DNA of 26,257 nt. Origin: a bacterium (lineage in GTDB: Archaea > Nanobdellota > Nanobdellia > SCGC-AAA011-G17 > GW2011-AR17). The stretch spans positions 1 through 26,257 of the forward strand of contig JAUYPF010000043.1 of assembly GCA_030697685.1 (NCBI GenBank). Reading direction: 5' to 3'. Numbering within the stretch: the first letter of the stretch is position 1; every line of letters starts with the position of its first letter. Position numbers and translations under genes: made by a program. The notes beneath the pieces are model-generated. The model searched no databases and had not been told where the DNA came from. It saw nothing but the letters and a program-made list of their open reading frames with translations. Positions 3,941 to 21,638 of the stretch are shown piece after piece.

Positions 3941-4444
3941 TTACTTCTTCACAATTTCTTGAACATCACTCCAAATAGGAATAGTTTTAACTTTATATTT
4001 TTCTACAAGCAAAATCCACACTCCTGCAACAAAAATTGTTGATACAAGATGCCAAAATAAAATATGCACTGCATCAAAATAGTTATTCCCATAGTTAATA
4101 TAAACGAAAATGAGTACTAATATTCGTACTATATTCAAAGAAAAAATAAAAATACTTCCTAAAAAAAACATTTTCAGTCCTTGAAGAAAAGAAATACCTC
4201 TAGTAAGAAGAAGTAATTCTAAAAGCAGTACATATGCCAATGTTGCAGCACATGCAGGGATAAAAGAAAAACTCACCTCTGCAAATTGCACGCTCATTCC
4301 ATATATTTGTACATCATAAAAAATTTGTAAAAGAAAATAACTCACATAAAAAGTAATAGGTAAGAAAAATAAAGAAAACAATCCGCTGCTTAATCCAACA
4401 AGCAAAGCGAAACTATAACGAATAAGAATGGATTTCATAAGCAT
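3941..4444 (-). CDS. Short exosortase/archaeosortase-family membrane protein (putative)
   Basis: 167 aa, about 5 TM helices. Cys in a TM helix (FIPACAATLAY), Asn-x-x-Arg-Ile (SLNIVRILVL) and a later His (FWHLV) match the Cys/Arg/His signature of exosortase/archaeosortase transpeptidases. Recognised by motif order only. Confidence 0.45.
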   Translation of the reverse strand: MLMKSILIRYSFALLVGLSSGLFSLFFLPITFYVSYFLLQIFYDVQIYGMSVQFAEVSFSFIPACAATLAYVLLLELLLLTRGISFLQGLKMFFLGSIFIFSLNIVRILVLIFVYINYGNNYFDAVHILFWHLVSTIFVAGVWILLVEKYKVKTIPIWSDVQEIVKK

Positions 4445-5490
4445 ATTTTAGGGGGATGTTTTAGAAGTTCATCAATAATTGTTATGCCAGATAAAATGTC
4501 TTTACTATTTACAATCCCAATGCCGCTATGCACATTTCTTACAGGAACTCCCAATACTGTGGTTGGAATTCCTCCTTTTGAAAGAGAAATATACAAAGCA
4601 TCTGTTGTTCCGAAATCACTAACCCCTGGTTGTAAACCTAGTTTTTTCTTTTTAGCAATATCCTTAATATTGTTATTTAAACAGCTATTAGAAAGTGTCT
4701 GCGAATCCATAATAGAAAGTACAGGACCTTTTCCTAATGCTCGTGTCATATCACCGCCTATATCATTGGCATCAAGTACATCAATGACAAGCGCCCACTC
4801 AGGATTAAGATTATATACAGAAGTCTTTGCTCCATACAAGCCAACTTCTTCTTGTACTGTAAACACAAAATAAATTTCTCCAGGATATTTTTTTACTTTT
4901 TTAATCAATTCCAGAAGTATAAAACAACCAACTCTATCATCAGCCGCCTTTCCCATAATATAATCTTTTGATCCTAAATAATGAGCTCTTTTTTCAAATT
5001 CAACAAATGTTCCAACTTCAACACCTATTTTCTGTAATTCAATTTTACTCAGCCCTGTATCCACAAATAAGTCTTCTTTTTTTGGAAGTTCTGTTATTGT
5101 TTCTCCAGAGCTAAGTTTTGAAGTAGAAATAATCCCCATAATTGTTTTTTTTCCATTAACTGGAATGAGAACTTTTTGATTAAGACATGCAAGTGTATCA
5201 ATGCCACCTATAGGAGAAATTTTAAGAGTCCCATCTACATTAATTTTATTTACCATAAGTCCAACTTCATCCATGTGTGCAACAAGCATCACACTTTGTC
5301 CTTTCCCTTTCTTATGCACAATTAAATTTCCGAACTTATCTACTTGCATATCTTTACAATAAGGCTTAATTTTTTTCATAAGATATGAACGAATAGCACT
5401 TTCATGTCCACTTGTAGAAAGAACATTCATTAGGGAAATCAACTCTTCCATAGGATTATATAAAGAAATAATCCTTATAAACTTTTGCAA
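4435..5490 (-). CDS. M42 family (TET/FrvX-like) aminopeptidase
   Basis: 351 aa with motifs typical of M42 peptidases (HMDEVGLMV, GKAADDRVGC, QEEVGLYGA). The true start may be the internal Met at 5451 (MEELISLMN...). Confidence 0.85.
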   Translation of the reverse strand: MQKFIRIISLYNPMEELISLMNVLSTSGHESAIRSYLMKKIKPYCKDMQVDKFGNLIVHKKGKGQSVMLVAHMDEVGLMVNKINVDGTLKISPIGGIDTLACLNQKVLIPVNGKKTIMGIISTSKLSSGETITELPKKEDLFVDTGLSKIELQKIGVEVGTFVEFEKRAHYLGSKDYIMGKAADDRVGCFILLELIKKVKKYPGEIYFVFTVQEEVGLYGAKTSVYNLNPEWALVIDVLDANDIGGDMTRALGKGPVLSIMDSQTLSNSCLNNNIKDIAKKKKLGLQPGVSDFGTTDALYISLSKGGIPTTVLGVPVRNVHSGIGIVNSKDILSGITIIDELLKHPPKICL

Positions 5491-6525
5491 ACTTTTTTAA
5501 ATACTGCCTTTAAACTGAAGTGTATGCATATACACAAAGCTTATTTCCAAGAGCCTACGAAAGGAGAAATTTCTCAATACACAAGAAGAGAAGCACAGAA
5601 TAATCTTGTAGATAGAATTAGTTCACTCGGAGAACAAGAACATATTTTAATAAATAGAATACTCATTCCTGAAAATTATAATAATAGCTGGCATTTTCTT
5701 CGTCATGGAGACAGAGTACATCTCAGATTTAGAGATCTTATTCAAAGATCAATAAGTAAAAGAAACGCAGCTGTTCCTGTAGATCTTCGTATCAGAGAGT
5801 TTGATGCTTTAAAAGAAAAAGCAGGTGCTTTCTCAGGCTATGACTATACACCTTTAGATATAAAACCATATAACCATCAAGATACAAGAACACGAAGAGT
5901 CAGCCTTGTTGAATGTCTCGAGGGTGCAAGGATCTATGCCTATACACACCAAGTGCCTATGCCACCTATTGAAGTGGAGCAATATACAGATGCAAAAGCA
6001 GTAGAAAAAGATGGGGCATTTTTTCATGTACATGTCCCGAGTAGAATCAAAGGACAGGGAAGATACCGCTTTAATCTTACTTCAGTTCCTATACGAGATA
6101 ATCTCAATAAATGGAGCATTGCCTGGGCAACTGCAAGTGAAGGACATGATTGTCTTCGAGGGATGTACATGGGCATTCGTTATGCACAAAAAGAAGACTC
6201 ACAGATATTTAATTGGTGTGCACATGAAATAGCTGCATACATTGCAACGATGAATAAGATGAATCACCGAGGAACGCGAACACCTTTACAAATGTCACAA
6301 ATTGCTTTACCAACACAATTAACAGTTAACTTTTACAAACGCCTTTGCGATAGTGTTCTTATTAACGATGCCAAAGTTGGAGAAAAAGAAAATATTCGAG
6401 TACTCAATAAAGCAGAGCAAGAATATCTCCTTTGGGGTCTGGTACATAAAAAAGGTCATAATCCAACATTTTTTGCAGAAGCAAATCTAAAAAATTATGA
6501 TTGGAAACTTAGGCACTTGGTTTGA
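5485..6525 (+). CDS. Hypothetical protein with atypical composition. Its 3' end carries the 43-bp repeat copy 1.
   Basis: 346 aa, rich in R/H/Q/T/G. This contrasts with neighbours rich in K/I/N/E. A likely start is Met at 5524. No confident family. The C-terminal HKKGHNPTFFAEANLKNYDWKL is vaguely reminiscent of the GH...Y box of tyrosine recombinases, not established. Confidence 0.55.
   Translation: MQTFLNTAFKLKCMHIHKAYFQEPTKGEISQYTRREAQNNLVDRISSLGEQEHILINRILIPENYNNSWHFLRHGDRVHLRFRDLIQRSISKRNAAVPVDLRIREFDALKEKAGAFSGYDYTPLDIKPYNHQDTRTRRVSLVECLEGARIYAYTHQVPMPPIEVEQYTDAKAVEKDGAFFHVHVPSRIKGQGRYRFNLTSVPIRDNLNKWSIAWATASEGHDCLRGMYMGIRYAQKEDSQIFNWCAHEIAAYIATMNKMNHRGTRTPLQMSQIALPTQLTVNFYKRLCDSVLINDAKVGEKENIRVLNKAEQEYLLWGLVHKKGHNPTFFAEANLKNYDWKLRHLV
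6470..6512 (+). repeat. 43-bp perfect direct repeat, copy 1 (inside the 3' coding end of 5485..6525)
   Basis: TTTTTGCAGAAGCAAATCTAAAAAATTATGATTGGAAACTTAG is identical to 9066-9108. Confidence 0.85.
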
Positions 6526-6600
6526 GAACATCGTTTTAATCTATAGTTTGTTGTATGTATTTTTTTAGTTTTAAATTTGGTGAAGTTTAGGTATTAATCC

Positions 6601-7647
6601 TTACCGTAACAATCCTGAAAACTTGACTAAATATTCAGCCATGTTAAATTTTTCTATAGATGGAAAATCACTAAACACTTGTACTTCTACAACACGAGGA
6701 CGCTCAAATATTTCATCAAACATGATATCTACACCTAATAAATTATAATTTAGTGCATGGGCAGTTTTCTTGGCAATCTCACGCATATTCATCAATGATG
6801 TATGAGGTAATAGCGACAAAGGGTGATGTTTAACATTCCCTCCTTGCGAAAAATTTGTTAAAATATTTTCTAAAGTATTAAATCGTGTAAAAAAATGAGG
6901 CACAATACCATTGACCACATACGCACGTACATCAAATTTACATCCCTCTTTGAGCAGAGGTGTTTTTATTTCTTTCTCAATAATTACTTCTCCTTCCAAA
7001 ATTTGTTGAAGTAATTCACTTCTATTAGTAATATCTGTAAATGGCCATCTTTCATTTTTCTCATAATTATTTAATTTATTATTCCCAACCTTATAATTAG
7101 TAAACCATCCTGATGCACCAAGATAGGTAATGCCTTTGCCTTCCGCACCATAGCGACATTTTACAAAAACGCCACGTTCTGATGAAATATGTTCTAAAAC
7201 ATTTAATATATTTCTATCTAAAATTTGTTCTGTAGTAGATATATTATTATATTGTAACGCTTTCACAACTTTAATCTTATCACGATCAAATGCTGCTTGT
7301 TGTGGTGTAATAATATACTCCAATCGTTCCTCATGGTATGCTTGACATAGTGATTCGTGTACTCCCTTAAAAAAATTATCAAGATTTTTGTAAATCAGAA
7401 AAGATGTACCATATAATGATCCATCTTTAGGCACTTCACATTCCTTATTCCAGAACGTATATGGAAAAAATAATAGAATAGTGATTTTCTCTTTGGAAAA
7501 ATGAGGCAATGTATCACCATACTCACAATGCTTCACTTCAAAACCTATTTTCTGAGCAAATTCATACACACTCAGTGCGTTTCGGTTTGTATACTGCGTA
7601 TCACCTTTTCCTAAAAGGAACAATCCTTTATCCATTGAATGTAGCAT
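6601..7647 (-). CDS. ATP-grasp family ligase (TTL / YheC-YheD-like)
   Basis: 348 aa. VFVKCRYGAEGKGITYL resembles the ATP-grasp central Gly-rich segment. C-terminal LLGVDIMFDEIFERPRVVEVQVFSDF matches the fELfGfDfmiD...EvN..P motif of TTL-like ATP-grasp enzymes. Confidence 0.6.
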   Translation of the reverse strand: MLHSMDKGLFLLGKGDTQYTNRNALSVYEFAQKIGFEVKHCEYGDTLPHFSKEKITILLFFPYTFWNKECEVPKDGSLYGTSFLIYKNLDNFFKGVHESLCQAYHEERLEYIITPQQAAFDRDKIKVVKALQYNNISTTEQILDRNILNVLEHISSERGVFVKCRYGAEGKGITYLGASGWFTNYKVGNNKLNNYEKNERWPFTDITNRSELLQQILEGEVIIEKEIKTPLLKEGCKFDVRAYVVNGIVPHFFTRFNTLENILTNFSQGGNVKHHPLSLLPHTSLMNMREIAKKTAHALNYNLLGVDIMFDEIFERPRVVEVQVFSDFPSIEKFNMAEYLVKFSGLLR

Positions 7648-7801
7648 CTTTTCTTAAAATCCTCAAGAAGTCTCCGAAAAAACTAAATCAATGATTAGAC
7701 AGGTTGCCAGTTCAACGTTTTTAAAATAAAAATCTTTTCTTTTGTGAAAATCCAATATAAATTTATTATGCTCTTCTGTCATTTTTTATATATCCTTTAA
7801 T

Positions 7802-8815
7802 TTACTCAATCTTACTCCCATTAAGAACATCCTGTGGCTTGTATTTTTCCCAGTCTTCTTTTTGCGGATCAAGAATCGCTTTTTTAATGGCCATTCCTAA
7901 ATCACCACAATTGCCAATGCTTCGTAACCCATTATTTTGTGCAATCATAGAGAGGACGGGATATATTTGTTGGCTATAAATTTTTGTTGATGTAATTGGT
8001 ACGAGACCAGGATAGCCATACAAGCTAATATGTACTCTTCCCTCTTCTAAATAGTAAGGTTGTGAATATGTTGTTGGTCGAATAGTTTCAATAGGATTTG
8101 GAAAATCAACGGAAAGATCAAGAATAATTAAATGTGGTGATGCTTTCTTGAGATGTTTTTTTGTGACAATATATTCGCGTCTGACACGAGCACTATCTGG
8201 CCAGGAAATACCATTAATCAACAAATCTAGGTCTTCGAGATGATGTTCAATGTATTTAAATTCCGACTTACGTAGAATCTTTGTCTCAATTCCTAGTCGA
8301 TGGCACGCTTTTAATGCTCCAGTTGAAACATTTCCATATCCTAGAACAAGCGCTTTCATGTCCCAAGGCATCTTTTGGCTATGTCTCAGAGCATAATAAA
8401 CCCCTATTTCCCCTGTAATTCCTGTTTGATTAATGATTCGATGATTTTTTTCATCACGAATATTTTCCAACTCAACTATGATAAGATTTTGTAACCCAGC
8501 ATAATAAATTCTTTCATGGTTTTGTTCACTGTGCATCATACATATAAGAATTTTTTTATTCATCAGCGTAAACTCCTCCGTTGATGGCGCTTTGAGTTTA
8601 ACAATCATATCGATATTTTCATACATTCTACGTGCATCACTCATAATTTGTGCGCCACTTTTCACATATTGTTCATCAGAAATGTGTACACCCTCACCTG
8701 CTCCCATTTCCACAAAAACATCATGCCCTTCTTCCACTAACTTCTGTATAGCATCTGGCATTACCGCCACACGTTTTTCTAATGGATACCTTTCTTTTGA
8801 TACTGCAATTCTCAT
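7802..8815 (-). CDS. AlaDH/PNT-family NAD(P)-dependent dehydrogenase (N5-carboxyethyl-ornithine synthase / saccharopine dehydrogenase-like)
   Basis: 337 aa. N-terminus MRIAVSKERYPLEKRVAVMPDAIQKLVEEGHDVFVEMGAGEGVHISDEQYVKSGAQI aligns by eye to the alanine dehydrogenase N-terminal domain. A Rossmann-like LVLGYGNVSTGALKACHRLG segment follows. It is too short and divergent for a canonical alanine dehydrogenase. Confidence 0.75.
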   Translation of the reverse strand: MRIAVSKERYPLEKRVAVMPDAIQKLVEEGHDVFVEMGAGEGVHISDEQYVKSGAQIMSDARRMYENIDMIVKLKAPSTEEFTLMNKKILICMMHSEQNHERIYYAGLQNLIIVELENIRDEKNHRIINQTGITGEIGVYYALRHSQKMPWDMKALVLGYGNVSTGALKACHRLGIETKILRKSEFKYIEHHLEDLDLLINGISWPDSARVRREYIVTKKHLKKASPHLIILDLSVDFPNPIETIRPTTYSQPYYLEEGRVHISLYGYPGLVPITSTKIYSQQIYPVLSMIAQNNGLRSIGNCGDLGMAIKKAILDPQKEDWEKYKPQDVLNGSKIE

Positions 8816-9065
8816 TATTTTTTAGGCAGAGAAAGGTCTTATATAAACTTAATGGAACTAACAGTATTTCCTAGTGATGCATTCTTTTAAATTTTTTAGG
8901 TGGTATTTCATCTATTCAGTTCACTATTCTTCCTTCAAGTTCCATATATTTGACCAACAAAACACACTACTAGACAGAGCCTTTCATTTGTTTTTCATAG
9001 GATGTTCGAGCAATGAATTACAGATTTTTTGCATTTCGATGATGTATTCCTTGAAATTGACCTGA

Positions 9066-9108
9066 TTTTTGCAGAAGCAAATCTAAAAAATTATGATTGG
9101 AAACTTAG
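9066..9108 (+). repeat. 43-bp perfect direct repeat, copy 2 (detached gene tail)
   Basis: Identical to 6470-6512. The same reading frame continues to a stop at 9119-9121 and encodes FAEANLKNYDWKLRHLH. Copy 1 encodes ...RHLV. Confidence 0.85.
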
Positions 9109-9117
9109 ACATCTTCA

Positions 9118-10122
9118 TTAAACTTCTTGAAAGAAATAAAACCCGCCTCGCTTCATAATTTTTTCTTCAGTGTTAAGAAAATTAGGAACAACTTTTTTTG
9201 TCACACGAATGATTCCATTTTGCAAACTAAAATAATCATCAACACTTCTATGAAGGTCATTCGTAGTAAATACATCTAAAGAATCACTCCACCCAAAAAT
9301 TCTTCCTGGCTGAACAAGAGTATGATTTAAAGTATCAAGGTCTTCTCGAAGTGTGAGAGCATAGTTTTTATATTTATATGTAGCCCACATTACAGAAACA
9401 TCTTCTTTTATTTTAAATTGAATTCCTCTATCATAAAACTTTGTTTGATAAGAGAGTTCCCCAGAATCTTCTAGAATTCCAATTGCATGAAAAAAGTTTT
9501 GTAAGGAAGTATAAGCATGAGCATCAGCTTCTGGACTATTATTAACTCCAGTTTCTACAAGCACTGCAGTAGTTCTCTTTCCCATCTTTTCTAATAATGA
9601 TCCAAGGTTCATATCTACAAGAAAAGCTGTAGGACTCAGTCTTTGTATCAAACGTTTTGTTTTAAAATCCATCTTTGGAATAACACCATGAGGAGGAATG
9701 CTCTTAGCAATATAGGAATGAATATCTAAAAAACCAATAAGAGGAAGCCTTTCAAAAAATGCTGCCATCTCTGCTGCAGTCCTTTGATCTTCTGTCTTTG
9801 GAGAATCAACCCACACACGATTAAAATCTTCTTTTCCAGGAACATCTCTTTGGTTAAAATAAGGTTTTAGTTGTGCTGCATGCACATTTCCAACAGAGAA
9901 ATACACATCAAAAAGATAGCTTCTTTTTTCTTCCGCTTCCTTAAGAAATGCACGAAATCCTGAAGGCTCTCTTCCATGAAGTAGTGTGGAAACAAGAACT
10001 GCACGAGAATGATCCTCCCCAGGAAGATGAAATAAAGTTGGCTTATCCATGGTAAAAAGTGCTTCTTTATCACTCAATCCACAAATACTTGTCACGCCTT
10101 CTCTATATTCAAAAAGACTCAT
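9118..10122 (-). CDS. AstE/AspA-family zinc hydrolase (succinylglutamate desuccinylase / aspartoacylase-like, M14-related)
   Basis: 334 aa. LLHGREPSG matches the HGNEpxG zinc-binding motif. A later DIHS matches the second His ligand region. Confidence 0.7.
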   Translation of the reverse strand: MSLFEYREGVTSICGLSDKEALFTMDKPTLFHLPGEDHSRAVLVSTLLHGREPSGFRAFLKEAEEKRSYLFDVYFSVGNVHAAQLKPYFNQRDVPGKEDFNRVWVDSPKTEDQRTAAEMAAFFERLPLIGFLDIHSYIAKSIPPHGVIPKMDFKTKRLIQRLSPTAFLVDMNLGSLLEKMGKRTTAVLVETGVNNSPEADAHAYTSLQNFFHAIGILEDSGELSYQTKFYDRGIQFKIKEDVSVMWATYKYKNYALTLREDLDTLNHTLVQPGRIFGWSDSLDVFTTNDLHRSVDDYFSLQNGIIRVTKKVVPNFLNTEEKIMKRGGFYFFQEV

Positions 10123-10200
10123 AGAAGAAGAAATTTTCCTTCTCTTTAAAAAGTTTTAGCATAAGAAAAGTTTATAAGAGAATTTTCCTTAAGATAAAAA

Positions 10201-10611
10201 ATGGTTTTATCATTACGAGTATACGAAAGGGCACTGCCACAAGGAGCAAAAGAATGGCAGCAAAAGATTCTTGGTGTTATTCGTTTAGGCAGTAATGTAA
10301 AAGAATTTATCTTTGGAAGAAATGCAGAAACAAGAGGTTTCTTATCAGGAATAGACAAGTATACATTTTTGGATTCTATGCATGGTAAATTTAAAATGTG
10401 GGCAACAGGGAATATCTATAAATTTACAGACATAAGTAAAAGTGGCGTTGCATTAAGAACAAACTTATCATTATGGATAATAAATTTTGGTCCAAGAGAA
10501 GCAATGTTAGAAAAAAATGATCCAACACAAATTAAAGTTGGCGACCAATTAATAATGAGGGATAAAACCAAAAGAAAAGAAATTATTTTAGAAGTCGTAC
10601 AAATCTATTGA
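10201..10611 (+). CDS. Hypothetical protein
   Basis: 136 aa, no confident family. The D-I-S-K-S-G segment only loosely resembles small beta-barrel nucleotide-binding domains. Confidence 0.35.
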   Translation: MVLSLRVYERALPQGAKEWQQKILGVIRLGSNVKEFIFGRNAETRGFLSGIDKYTFLDSMHGKFKMWATGNIYKFTDISKSGVALRTNLSLWIINFGPREAMLEKNDPTQIKVGDQLIMRDKTKRKEIILEVVQIY

Positions 10612-11075
10612 TCCTCTTCATCTTGCGAAGCAGTAATACTATGTAACCTTCTTTCCTTAGGCACCATGTTTCGCAGAAGATCATTCTTTAACATTCCACA
10701 TCCAAGAATATCATTTTCATGCTGAAGAATAACAAATCCACTATTCCCTTCAAAAGGAATATCTCCTCCTTTCATCCACAGCTCTGCTTGTGCTTTATTT
10801 ACAGGAATAATATTCTTTCGTATATCTAAGAGTTGTGCTCCTTCTATGCTTAAACGCAAGCCTTCTCTTTCTTTCTTTGCGAAATACATGCCAGAATTAT
10901 TAATGCGCATTCCTTGAGTATCTATTTGTGCAAAATCCTTACTCAAAACAAATATCTTATCCTGGGAATTTTCAAAAAATAACACATCAGGTTCTTCTGT
11001 AACACCAAACTGTTCTTTCAATTGGTGAAATAGCTCTTTTTTTTCCTTGCCATTATAGAATCCTACGCGTTGCAT
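10605..11075 (-). CDS. Nip7-like PUA-domain RNA-binding protein (archaeal ribosome biogenesis factor homolog)
   Basis: The C-terminal segment ENDILGCGMLKNDLLRNMVPKERRLHS aligns with the PUA region of archaeal Nip7. The ORF-track start at 11135 is probably too long. I placed the start at Met 11075 (MQRVGFYNG...). Confidence 0.55.
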   Translation of the reverse strand: MQRVGFYNGKEKKELFHQLKEQFGVTEEPDVLFFENSQDKIFVLSKDFAQIDTQGMRINNSGMYFAKKEREGLRLSIEGAQLLDIRKNIIPVNKAQAELWMKGGDIPFEGNSGFVILQHENDILGCGMLKNDLLRNMVPKERRLHSITASQDEEDQ

Positions 11076-11127
11076 GGAAAAAGAAAAGAGGAATATCTTT
11101 ATAAATTCTATGTTCTCCAAAGGATGT

Positions 11128-12765
11128 ATGGACAAGGAGATAGAAAAATGGGCTTTGCATAATGCAGTTAAATTCCAAGGAAAAGCAAATCCAGGTGCAG
11201 TACTAGGTCAACTGTTTGCAGAGAATCCCAAACTCAAAGAACAAGCAAAAGAACTCTCAAAAAAGATCCAAGAGATTGTCAAGCAAGTTAACAGTCTTTC
11301 TCCTGAAGAACAAAGAAAAAAATTAGAGAAGCTAGCTCCAGAACTTCTCGAAGAAAAGAAAGAAAAGAAAAAAAGGGAATTACCAGAGCTTCCAAATGTG
11401 CATGGAACTGTTGTAACAAGAATTCCTCCTGAACCTAGTAAATATTTACATTTAGGCCATGCAATGTCTTTCTTAATTAATTATATGTATGCAAAAAAAT
11501 ACAATGGGAAATGTATTCTTCGCATAGATGATACAAATCCGGACAAAGCAAAAAAAGAATATTACGATGCTTTGCATGAAGATCTTCTCTGGTTACGCAT
11601 TGCTCCAGATAAAACAATTATTGCTTCTCAAGAGATGGAAACTTTTTACAAATATGCAGAGCTACTCATAAACAAAGAACGTGCATATGTTTGTTTTTGT
11701 GATAAAGAAAAAGTAAGTAAATTTAGAATGCAGGCAAAAATCTGTGACCATAGAACGCAGAATCCAGAAAAAAATATGATTCTTTGGAAAGATATGCTTG
11801 CAAAGAAATACAAAGCTGGAGAAGTAACTTTACGTTTAGTTGGAGAAATGGACTGTACAAATGCAGTCATGCGTGATCCTATTCTCTTTAGAATTGTCAA
11901 AGCACAACATACTCTAACAAAAGATAAATATGTAGTCTGGCCAACCTATGATTTCGAAACAGTGATTGGAGAAGAGATTACTGGAGTAACGCATATTTTA
12001 CGAAGTAATGAATTTGGAGAAATGCGTATAGAACTCCAAGATTATATTAAAGATATTTTAGGATTTAAAAAACAAGAAGTTTTGCAATATGGAAGAATGA
12101 CAGTTCATGGTTTTGAAACGCATGGTCGTGTGATTAGAGAGAAAATAGAGAATGGTGAAGTAGAAGGCTGGGATGATCCAAGATTGATGACTTTGAAAGC
12201 CCTTCGAAGAAGAGGTATTGTTCCAGAAACTTTTTATGAGTTAGTCTTAGAAGTTGGTCTTTCTCCAACTGCAACAAATCTTGATTGGAGTGTTGTTGCT
12301 TCTATTAACAGAAAAATTATCGATCCAACAACGAAAAGATATTTTTTCGTGAAAGATCCTAAAAAAATAAAAATAAATAATACTTTGAAACAAGCAAAAG
12401 CTCCATTACATCCTGAACATAAAGAAATGGGCTTCAAAACAATTCATTTTGATGATGAGTTTTATGTGCAAGATGATATTGAGAATGGAAAAATATATCG
12501 TTTTATGCATCTCTTTAACTTTAAAGATAATAGTTATGTATCAGAAGAATACGATCCTGAGCTAAAAGCAAAAATTATTCATTGTGTTCCAATCAAAGAT
12601 GCTGTGGATATTCATGTTCTCATGGCAGATGGTTCTCTTATAAAAGGAAAAGGAGAGAAGGCTTTAAAAGAACTCAAAGAAGGTGAAGTTATCCAATTTG
12701 AACGATTATTCTTCTGTCGTTTGGATAATAAAGAAAAAATGCTTTTTGTGTATACGCATGATTAA
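11128..12765 (+). CDS. gltX: Glutamyl-tRNA synthetase, archaeal type
   Basis: Class I HIGH motif in PEPSKYLHLGHA and archaeal or eukaryotic-type GluRS architecture. I placed the start at the internal Met (MDKEIEKWALHNAV...). That is the conserved archaeal GluRS N-terminus. The ORF-track start at 11074 adds 18 residues. Confidence 0.88.
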   Translation: MDKEIEKWALHNAVKFQGKANPGAVLGQLFAENPKLKEQAKELSKKIQEIVKQVNSLSPEEQRKKLEKLAPELLEEKKEKKKRELPELPNVHGTVVTRIPPEPSKYLHLGHAMSFLINYMYAKKYNGKCILRIDDTNPDKAKKEYYDALHEDLLWLRIAPDKTIIASQEMETFYKYAELLINKERAYVCFCDKEKVSKFRMQAKICDHRTQNPEKNMILWKDMLAKKYKAGEVTLRLVGEMDCTNAVMRDPILFRIVKAQHTLTKDKYVVWPTYDFETVIGEEITGVTHILRSNEFGEMRIELQDYIKDILGFKKQEVLQYGRMTVHGFETHGRVIREKIENGEVEGWDDPRLMTLKALRRRGIVPETFYELVLEVGLSPTATNLDWSVVASINRKIIDPTTKRYFFVKDPKKIKINNTLKQAKAPLHPEHKEMGFKTIHFDDEFYVQDDIENGKIYRFMHLFNFKDNSYVSEEYDPELKAKIIHCVPIKDAVDIHVLMADGSLIKGKGEKALKELKEGEVIQFERLFFCRLDNKEKMLFVYTHD

Positions 12766-20904: not shown

Positions 20905-20939
20905 CCGAAAATCTTCCTGATTTTTCGGAAATCTTCCTG
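20905..20939 (+). promoter_or_regulatory. Tandem 20-bp direct repeat carrying the inverted-repeat motif CGRAAATCTTCCTG, 2 copies
   Basis: CCGAAAATCTTCCTG at 20905-20919 and TCGGAAATCTTCCTG at 20925-20939, each followed by a T-run. GGAA-ATC-TTCC is an inverted repeat with a 3-nt spacer. Located between the phasin-like stop (plus a T8 run) and the PIN gene start. Confidence 0.5.
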
Positions 20940-20985
20940 TTTTTTGGTGTAAGAGTTTATTAAAACACTTTTCATAAAATGTTCT

Positions 20986-21616: not shown

Positions 21617-21631
21617 CCGGAAATCTTCCGG
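21617..21631 (+). promoter_or_regulatory. Third copy of the motif, here a perfect palindrome: CCGGAAATCTTCCGG
   Basis: Inverted repeat CCGGAA-ATC-TTCCGG. The same GGAAATCTTCC core occurs at 20905-20939. It sits 8 nt downstream of the stop of 21639..22013. Confidence 0.5.
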
Positions 21632-21638
21632 ATTATCT

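Follow-up and report, generated by a model that had tools for sequence, protein, structure and literature searches.

A conserved dehydrogenase–ligase operon on a probably inserted, repeat-flanked cassette among resident genes of a DPANN archaeon

Does a run of neighboring amide- and peptide-bond enzymes encode one pathway, or is it a composite of resident and inserted genes? This question is raised by region 4435–10122 of a 26,257-nucleotide (nt) contig (GenBank assembly GCA_030697685.1, contig JAUYPF010000043.1), the whole of which we call the window and to which all coordinates refer unless another locus is named. The region encodes an M42-family aminopeptidase (4435–5490, minus strand), an ATP-grasp ligase (6601–7647, minus strand), a dehydrogenase of the alanine dehydrogenase (AlaDH)/PNT family (7802–8815, minus strand), and a divergent zinc hydrolase of the AstE/AspA (M14-like) type (9118–10122, minus strand). 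The original prediction regarded these as 4 adjacent genes acting together to make and break an amino acid conjugate. All 4 open reading frames (ORFs) exist, but a fifth, ORF5485 (5485–6525, plus strand), was overlooked between the M42 gene and the ligase gene. Our results indicate that the region is a composite of a resident backbone and an inserted cassette and not one four-gene module. We consider it very likely that the composite nature of the region, the conservation of the dehydrogenase–ligase pair, and the insertion all hold together; the fuller reading, in which the conserved operon on the inserted cassette also makes a small amide, is in our judgment probable, with less assurance.

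The evidence begins with the pair. Homologs of the ATP-grasp ligase were traced to contigs, GTDB species genomes, and JGI metagenomes, and duplicates were removed. The homologs form 71 clusters, all labeled DPANN where they are named, and represent 34 distinct loci. Of these, 28 extend far enough upstream to be informative, and in every one of them an AlaDH-like gene precedes the ligase gene on the same strand. The 2 genes are adjacent in 23 of these 28, with gaps of −6 to 161 nt in the alignments, and gene calls are 3–4 nt apart or overlapping in L005, L006, and L008. Across the loci, the pair sits in unrelated gene contexts, and no further gene emerged as widely shared when the neighbors at the first 19 loci were compared all against all. 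ATP-grasp ligases also accompany the dehydrogenase in more distant AlaDH-like clades (L047/L048 and L049). Thus, a two-gene core, with the dehydrogenase as the proximal gene and the ligase as the distal gene, is strongly supported as a conserved operon. The same comparison speaks against the hydrolase and the M42 peptidase as partners: a Pfam scan of 123 neighbors at 27 other loci detected neither AstE/AspA nor M42 proteins, and these 2 genes were found with the pair in just 2 cases, the window and a close syntenic relative (L003, protein identity 68–90%). Neighborhood conservation therefore bears out the dehydrogenase–ligase half of the predicted module and not the other half.

The hydrolase and M42 genes belong to a resident backbone that comprises the genes for GluRS, a PUA protein, a small ORF, and the AstE/AspA-like zinc hydrolase, followed by M42, a pacearchaeosortase, DUF7121, and the ribosomal proteins L12, L10, and L1; ORF5485 is also part of the resident context. 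In 2 syntenic loci (L009 and L010), the backbone runs from GluRS through the PUA protein, the small ORF, and the hydrolase on to the L12 gene, and the dehydrogenase, the ligase, and ORF5485 are all absent. The hydrolase orthologs are 69% (L009) and 50% (L010) identical to that of the window. M42 is present in 1 of the 2 (L010, 77% identical to the window M42), where the AstE-like hydrolase and M42 genes lie on one strand, 33 bp apart, with no cassette between them. A beta-lactamase-like gene, the hydrolase gene, and the M42 gene stand in a row on one strand at 6995–10114 of L010. Going by this arrangement, the hydrolase and M42 may be a real ancestral pair. The backbone is archaeal and DPANN-like, with an archaeal-type GluRS and an L1/L10/L12 stalk operon with a Ribosomal_60s match, and its source is a DPANN archaeon of the Pace-/Woesearchaeota type (pacearchaeosortase NF033505, 123.7 bits against a cut-off of 80). 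The public record labels the source metagenome-assembled genome as "bacterium."

The cassette is bounded by a 46-nt direct repeat, the 2 copies of which are identical at 45 of 46 positions and have sharp edges; no such repeat is expected by chance. Copy 1 (6470–6515, plus strand) is the functional 3′ end of ORF5485, which is the source of the repeat. Copy 2 (9066–9111, plus strand; 9066–9121 with the next 10 nt) is a relic ORF5485 3′ end that reads FAEANLKNYDWKLRHLH up to its stop. This relic stop (9119–9121) overlaps the stop (9118–9120) of the convergent hydrolase gene; therefore, the hydrolase gene and ORF5485 were formerly direct, convergent neighbors. The arrangement in L003 mirrors that in the window: a 136-nt repeat, 86% identical and containing an exact core of 76 nt, lies on both sides of the same pair. 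This repeat is made from the 3′ end of the hydrolase gene, and the relic copy lies against the ORF5485 ortholog. We propose that a cassette of approximately 2.6 kb entered the junction at which the convergent hydrolase gene and ORF5485 overlapped by their stop codons. The insertion would have duplicated the junction, so that both genes stayed intact, and the 46-nt repeat would be the remnant of this duplication. The simplest reading is that one insertion duplicated at least approximately 170 nt of the junction and was followed by different deletions in the 2 lineages. Between the dehydrogenase gene and copy 2, on the upstream side of the dehydrogenase, lies a 250-nt spacer (8816–9065). Its first ~80 nt align to the L003 spacer, and the remaining ~170–220 nt are specific to the window, with no likeness to any fetched locus. 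The spacer also holds a mechanically called 63-residue ORF (8874–9065) that ends exactly at the repeat.

Two observations suggest that the repeats may have remained active. First, a comparison of the orthologous 46 nt in the window and L003 shows 8 differences, whereas the 2 copies within the window differ at only 1 of 46, which points to continuing recombination between the copies. Second, a 1,565-bp contig from Hainich groundwater (L004, ENA ERZ1292621, 3× coverage), 99.8% identical to L003, reads in order the end of the ATP-grasp gene, the exact 76-nt core of the repeat, the dehydrogenase gene's upstream sequence, and the start of that gene. Such a junction is as expected for an excised 2,460-bp circle or a tandem duplicate of the L003 cassette. 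Thus, the placement of the ATP-grasp and AlaDH-family genes on a repeat-bounded and apparently mobile cassette, as originally predicted, is supported by the 28 of 28 linked loci, the repeats in the window and L003, and the apparently empty sites in relatives, although these cassette-free loci also lack ORF5485. A search of JGI metagenomes for the exact 46-nt repeat in other configurations returned no match.

The operon has recurrent accessory genes. A second ATP-grasp gene (grasp2) lies between the dehydrogenase and ligase genes in 5 of the 28 loci (intact in L006, L013, L016, L020, and L023), and it is also present in L019. Grasp2 resembles the ATP-grasp domain of cyanophycin synthetase (6e-66), GshF (2e-58), and the NAGGN synthetase (2e-37), with all of these scores under the respective cut-offs. 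In the window, the first 33 codons of grasp2 persist as a relic in the 154-nt spacer between the pair (7687–7785, minus strand; tblastx, 73% over 33 residues to the start of L020 grasp2, E = 1e-11), reading MTEEHNKFILDFHKRKDFYFKNVELATCLIID compared with MPEEHNVFKLNFHQRKDFNCKGVELTTCLIIDEA in L020. The window lineage has therefore lost grasp2. In 5 distinct loci, a stand-alone class-I glutamine amidotransferase (GATase) of ~180 residues lies directly after the ligase gene in convergent orientation (L024 6835–7377, L038 2291–2872, L039 3536–4075, L040 1935–2474, and L043 2967–3512, all minus strand). With 109–123 bits against a cut-off of 198, it is not a bona fide GuaA subunit. In L047/L048, the dehydrogenase gene is convergent with genes for a GATase-like protein, a GNAT protein, a grasp2-like ligase (34% identical), and a YheCD-like ligase that is 33% identical to the window ligase. 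The general expectation of a hydrolase or amidotransferase beside the ligase is partly echoed here, but the recurrent partners are grasp2 and the class-I GATase, not AstE or M42. A 328-residue protein encoded upstream of the L005 pair was considered as an AstE-like protein or an ORF5485 homolog and rejected, as it has no similarity to either.

From these components, we propose the following pathway. The operon would encode the AlaDH-family dehydrogenase, an optional ATP-grasp ligase of the CphA/GshF/Ngg type (lost here), and the RimK/LysX-like ATP-grasp ligase. The dehydrogenase would provide alanine through reductive amination of pyruvate; it might instead produce an N-(1-carboxyethyl) "opine" amino acid. 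Acting through an acyl phosphate intermediate, the ATP-grasp ligase or ligases would then link this amino acid to a carboxylate. The result would be a small di- or tripeptide-like amide, which in some lineages would be further amidated by the class-I GATase or acetylated by the GNAT protein. The hydrolase and M42 would stand outside this pathway. Ligases of the CphA/GshF/Ngg type, amidotransferases, and GNATs are the toolkit of small-peptide pathways such as those of NAGGN, glutathione, and cyanophycin, and a small-peptide product is favored because these accessory genes recur. As a possible product, we tentatively suggest a small amide resembling a di- or tripeptide that contains alanine or bears an N-carboxyethyl cap, below even chances in our estimate. 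The substrates, the product, and the direction of the dehydrogenase reaction are all predicted here from sequences and structural models.

The ligase fits the catalytic part of this proposal. It marginally exceeds the gathering score of Pfam PF14398 (YheC/YheD; 29.3 bits against 26.8), and most of its homologs carry a precomputed match to this family. Its match to Pfam TTL (PF03133) is likewise borderline, above the gathering score. The predicted model (pLDDT 92.8) is closest in fold to RimK, ArgX/LysX, DcsG, and GshB. Residues at the nucleotide- and Mg-binding positions (K163, G167, G170-K171-G172, E224, D239, R241, N265, D307, and E321) are invariant in 47 homologs; we thus expect acyl phosphate activation of a carboxylate, followed by its coupling to an amine. 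Despite the fold, the window ligase is only 12–17% identical to RimK and LysX/ArgX, is found without a LysW-like or S6 context, and has a highly conserved N-terminal motif (FFFPYTFWN..CE, DRDK) that distinguishes it from these enzymes. Its scores against the RimK models are below threshold (PF08443, 17.9 against a gathering score of 21; TIGR00768, 31.1 against 143.4). In L036 (1–2062), 2 paralogous YheCD-like ATP-grasp copies occur in tandem, and the upstream copy is 42% identical to the window ligase over 301 residues.

The alternative that survives best is that the ligase attaches the amino acid made by the dehydrogenase to a macromolecule, such as a protein C-terminus, a carrier protein, or a uronic acid of a surface glycan, in the manner of RimK/LysX/TTL-like enzymes or of a sugar-acid amidoligase. 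Its closest folds, RimK and ArgX/LysX, act on protein C-termini, the TTL score exceeds the gathering score, and the ORF5485-family gene that recurs beside the ligase could be the target. In L049 (6001–12936), the distant pair is followed on the same strand by genes for an FAD amine oxidase, a GT4 protein, a Glycos_transf_4 protein, and an ABC-2/Wzt exporter, which hints at a surface-glycan decoration role in that lineage. However, only 1 of approximately 36 contexts has glycan genes beside the pair, and no LysW-like small ORF is conserved beside the pair. In addition, the recurrent CphA/GshF/Ngg-type ligase, GATase, and GNAT are typical of small-peptide pathways, and the small-molecule ligases DcsG, GshB, and Ddl score nearly as high as RimK. 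We therefore consider attachment to a protein or glycan unlikely and prefer a small amide as the product.

The dehydrogenase (337 residues) contains both the N- and C-terminal AlaDh_PNT domains (Pfam) and represents a distinct subfamily. Its family profile matches AlaDH structures over the full length (5e-49), with transhydrogenase dI second, and matches saccharopine dehydrogenase in the N-domain only (residues 5–140, ~4e-14). The predicted model (pLDDT 92.1) has AlaDH as its top Foldseek match (TM score 0.83), and saccharopine dehydrogenase is absent from the top 50 matches. Therefore, as far as saccharopine dehydrogenase is concerned, the original placement of this protein away from AlaDH finds no support, as there is no full-length similarity to the LYS1-type enzyme. 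Residues R15, H95, D233, and D237 are invariant and K73 is nearly so among 42 homologs. In a hidden Markov model alignment to 2eez, all 5 align with AlaDH positions, K75 likewise aligns with an AlaDH lysine, and the window "DLSVD" aligns with AlaDH "DVAVD." We take Arg15, Lys75, His96, and Asp270 (M. tuberculosis numbering) to be the catalytic and pyruvate-binding residues of AlaDH. The retention of AlaDH-type active-site residues points to reductive amination of a 2-oxo acid of the pyruvate type, or to the reverse reaction.

Nevertheless, although related to AlaDH, the protein falls outside the AlaDH family by both score and cofactor motif. It differs from the structurally characterized AlaDHs (PDB 1pjb, 2vhx, and 2eez) as follows: (i) it is 24% identical to them and ~35 residues shorter; (ii) its score against the AlaDH equivalog TIGR00518 is 117.7 bits, with a cut-off of 391.85; (iii) "GYGxVxSGA ... 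KILRKSE" replaces the AlaDH "GGGxVG ... ILD," such that "KILRKSE," with its invariant R182, aligns with AlaDH "TILDVN" and the NAD-type acidic residue is missing; (iv) it carries family-specific invariant substitutions around the active site (M93 and G267-Y268); and (v) its subfamily is always encoded beside ATP-grasp ligases. Because the R182/K183 motif stands in place of the NAD-type "ILD," the enzyme probably uses NADP(H), and a preference for NADPH would favor the biosynthetic direction. Firm membership in either the RimK or the AlaDH family was thus found for neither enzyme. A tblastn search of plasmids with the dehydrogenase returned only annotated AlaDHs, with 26%–29% identity.

A second alternative combines a plain AlaDH that interconverts alanine and pyruvate, and thereby supplies or removes alanine for a Ddl-like or L-amino-acid-ligase reaction without new chemistry, with a repeat that reflects a single old duplication and no ongoing mobility. 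AlaDH is the best match in both sequence and structure, the catalytic residues are kept, the cassette has no recombinase, and flanking repeats were not detected at most loci. The wide margin by which the AlaDH cut-off is missed, the shorter chain, the NADP-type R182/K183, and the invariant M93 and G267-Y268 do not fit an ordinary AlaDH. Nor do the near-identity of the repeat copies, compared with the 8 differences between the window and L003, and the L004 junction fit an old duplication, as both point to recombination. We regard this combination as quite improbable. For the opine variant of the product, the comparison is with N5-(1-carboxyethyl)-ornithine synthase (CEOS), which, like saccharopine dehydrogenase, belongs to the same Pfam superfamily as the window dehydrogenase and which is presumably short (~313 residues) and NADPH dependent, similar to the window subfamily. 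One JGI record gives the name CEOS to a fragmentary relative of the dehydrogenase.

The closest working analogy to the extended operon is the NAGGN system, which consists of Ngg (a GNAT–ATP-grasp fusion), the AsnO amidotransferase, and an M42 peptidase. The extended archaeal clusters likewise contain a CphA/Ngg-type ATP-grasp ligase (trio_acet_GNAT model, 2e-37 to 2e-40), a GNAT protein, and a glutamine-amidotransferase-type protein, and in the window an M42 peptidase lies nearby. By contrast, no NAGGN model reaches its cut-off, the archaeal ligase and GNAT are separate proteins, and the archaeal amidotransferase is of class I and not AsnO-like. The invariant archaeal core, an AlaDH-family dehydrogenase plus a RimK-like ligase, has no counterpart in NAGGN systems, which lack both. 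Pfam and NCBIfam scans identified no Ngg or AsnO among the window proteins. A second system that joins the 2 enzyme types is pyrrolysine biosynthesis, in which the ATP-grasp amide ligase PylC acts with the dehydrogenase PylD, an NAD-dependent enzyme that acts on the ligated amine. The window proteins have no PylC or PylD match in NCBIfam, and the gene order, sizes, and taxa differ from those of the window pair. A literature search yielded no description of an invariant pairing of an AlaDH/CEOS-type enzyme with an ATP-grasp ligase.

The identities of the 2 resident enzymes were correctly predicted. The M42 protein belongs to Pfam PF05343 (Peptidase_M42; 259.4 bits against a gathering score of 23.2, E = 4.5e-77); it falls under every NCBIfam equivalog cut-off, including that of the NAGGN-system M42 model TIGR03106 (61.8 bits against 397.75). 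The AstE/AspA assignment is right at the superfamily level, and it emerges at the level of the protein family. The window hydrolase by itself has no match in Pfam (E ≤ 10, PF24827 AstE_AspA_cat included), NCBIfam, or the PDB (phmmer), whereas its family profile matches the succinylglutamate desuccinylase 2g9d (E = 1.2e-3) and also carboxypeptidase A4, in alignments that span the zinc motifs. In addition, PF24827 is matched by 7 of 20 family members (best, 3e-12). Within the family, H49, E52, N101, D133, H135, and E190 are invariant and R102 is nearly so; that is to say, the HxxE...H zinc ligands, the N-R motif, and the catalytic Glu of the AstE/AspA family are kept. The family is rare (22 clusters) and has no conserved partner: the bacterial homologs have no consistent neighbor and no adjoining ATP-grasp gene, the nearest case being a RimK gene ~6 kb away in L028. 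The proposal that the ligase, a CEOS-like dehydrogenase, the deacylase, and M42 constitute a single make-and-break module draws on the closeness of all 4 genes in the window and L003 and on the NAGGN system, which joins an ATP-grasp ligase to an M42 peptidase and whose trio_acet_GNAT and trio_M42_hydro models are weakly matched, but we consider it very improbable, given that the 4 genes occur together in only one lineage of the 34 loci, that the pair is missing from L009 and L010 even though both carry the hydrolase and one of them also M42, that the neighbors at the 27 other loci include neither AstE nor M42, that the insertion boundaries separate the pair from the hydrolase and M42, that the window M42 is far from the NAGGN type and unlinked to the pair elsewhere, and that bacterial AstE-like homologs lack an adjoining ATP-grasp gene.

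The uncharacterized protein encoded by ORF5485 has no match in Pfam, NCBIfam, PHROG, or the PDB, and neither 43 members of its family nor the family profile match Pfam or the PDB. The family is large, with 303 representative clusters at E ≤ 1e-3. The ortholog in L003 is 81% identical. L001 encodes a 32% identical homolog (11069–12412, minus strand), which is convergent with the ATP-grasp gene in an otherwise unrelated context, and in L003 the ligase stop is directly followed by a relic of 25 codons (6104–6178, minus strand) that derives from the C-terminal end of an L001-type member. Hence, the cassette seems to have traveled with, or repeatedly landed beside, ORF5485-family genes. A SWIM-like assignment, suggested by a CxC...CxH motif, was dropped: the cysteines are not conserved across the family, and no Pfam or PDB match was found. 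The mechanically called TTL-start ORFs of M42 and ORF5485 overlap head to head at 5485–5490. Going by ortholog lengths, the true M42 start is probably the ATG at 5451; the start of ORF5485 is probably M14, at 5524, in view of ortholog lengths and of a database protein (P0214) that begins at M14. Starts at 5451 and 5524 leave a 72-nt divergent promoter region between the 2 genes.

Several points weigh against the reading of a mobile operon for a small amide. With respect to the cassette, (i) the L004 contig, at 3× coverage, could be an assembly chimera formed at the 76-nt exact repeat; (ii) the cassette has no recombinase, and region 3941–12765 has no integrase-like Pfam or PHROG match; (iii) cassette homologs were not found on IMG/VR viral contigs; (iv) no flanking repeats were found in L001 or L005–L008; and (v) with an ORF5485-family gene beside the pair in L001 and a relic of one in L003, ORF5485 could itself belong to the module. 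With respect to the pathway, the dehydrogenase could be an ordinary, if divergent, AlaDH that works catabolically; the opine variant would depend on a presumed resemblance to CEOS; and the window operon, with its 154-nt spacer in place of grasp2, may be a reduced or decaying version. The literature search found nothing on the members of the operon, and their proposed biochemical function is a prediction from sequence comparison and modeled structures.

Scans of the window with a sigma-70 promoter and terminator model gave chance-level results, and this model is not applicable to archaea. No tRNA gene was detected in the window. Outside the region, a 20-nt unit, CGAAAATCTTCCTGATTTTT, occurs in intergenic DNA as 2 tandem copies at 20906–20945 and once more ~700 nt downstream (21618–21637).

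The main practical result is negative: the apparent four-enzyme "make and break" module arose mostly through a chance insertion. What remains is a DPANN operon that is conserved and amenable to testing, together with a cassette that may be mobile without a recombinase. A bolder view, which we regard as doubtful, is that a two-gene cassette without a recombinase forms a circle via duplicated gene ends and spreads in DPANN archaea, carrying an undescribed NADPH-dependent pathway of an AlaDH-family enzyme and an ATP-grasp ligase to a new solute, cofactor-like peptide, or surface decoration. The repeat structure provides a concrete case of gene entry into and exit from DPANN genomes without an obvious recombinase, and the pair can be tested directly as a two-enzyme system. 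In DPANN archaea, genomes are very small and biosynthetic pathways are few. The operon is kept across Woese-, Pace-, Nano-, and Micrarchaeota and thus likely makes something that these small-genome cells need, and its product may serve osmotic balance, surface chemistry, or interaction with a host.

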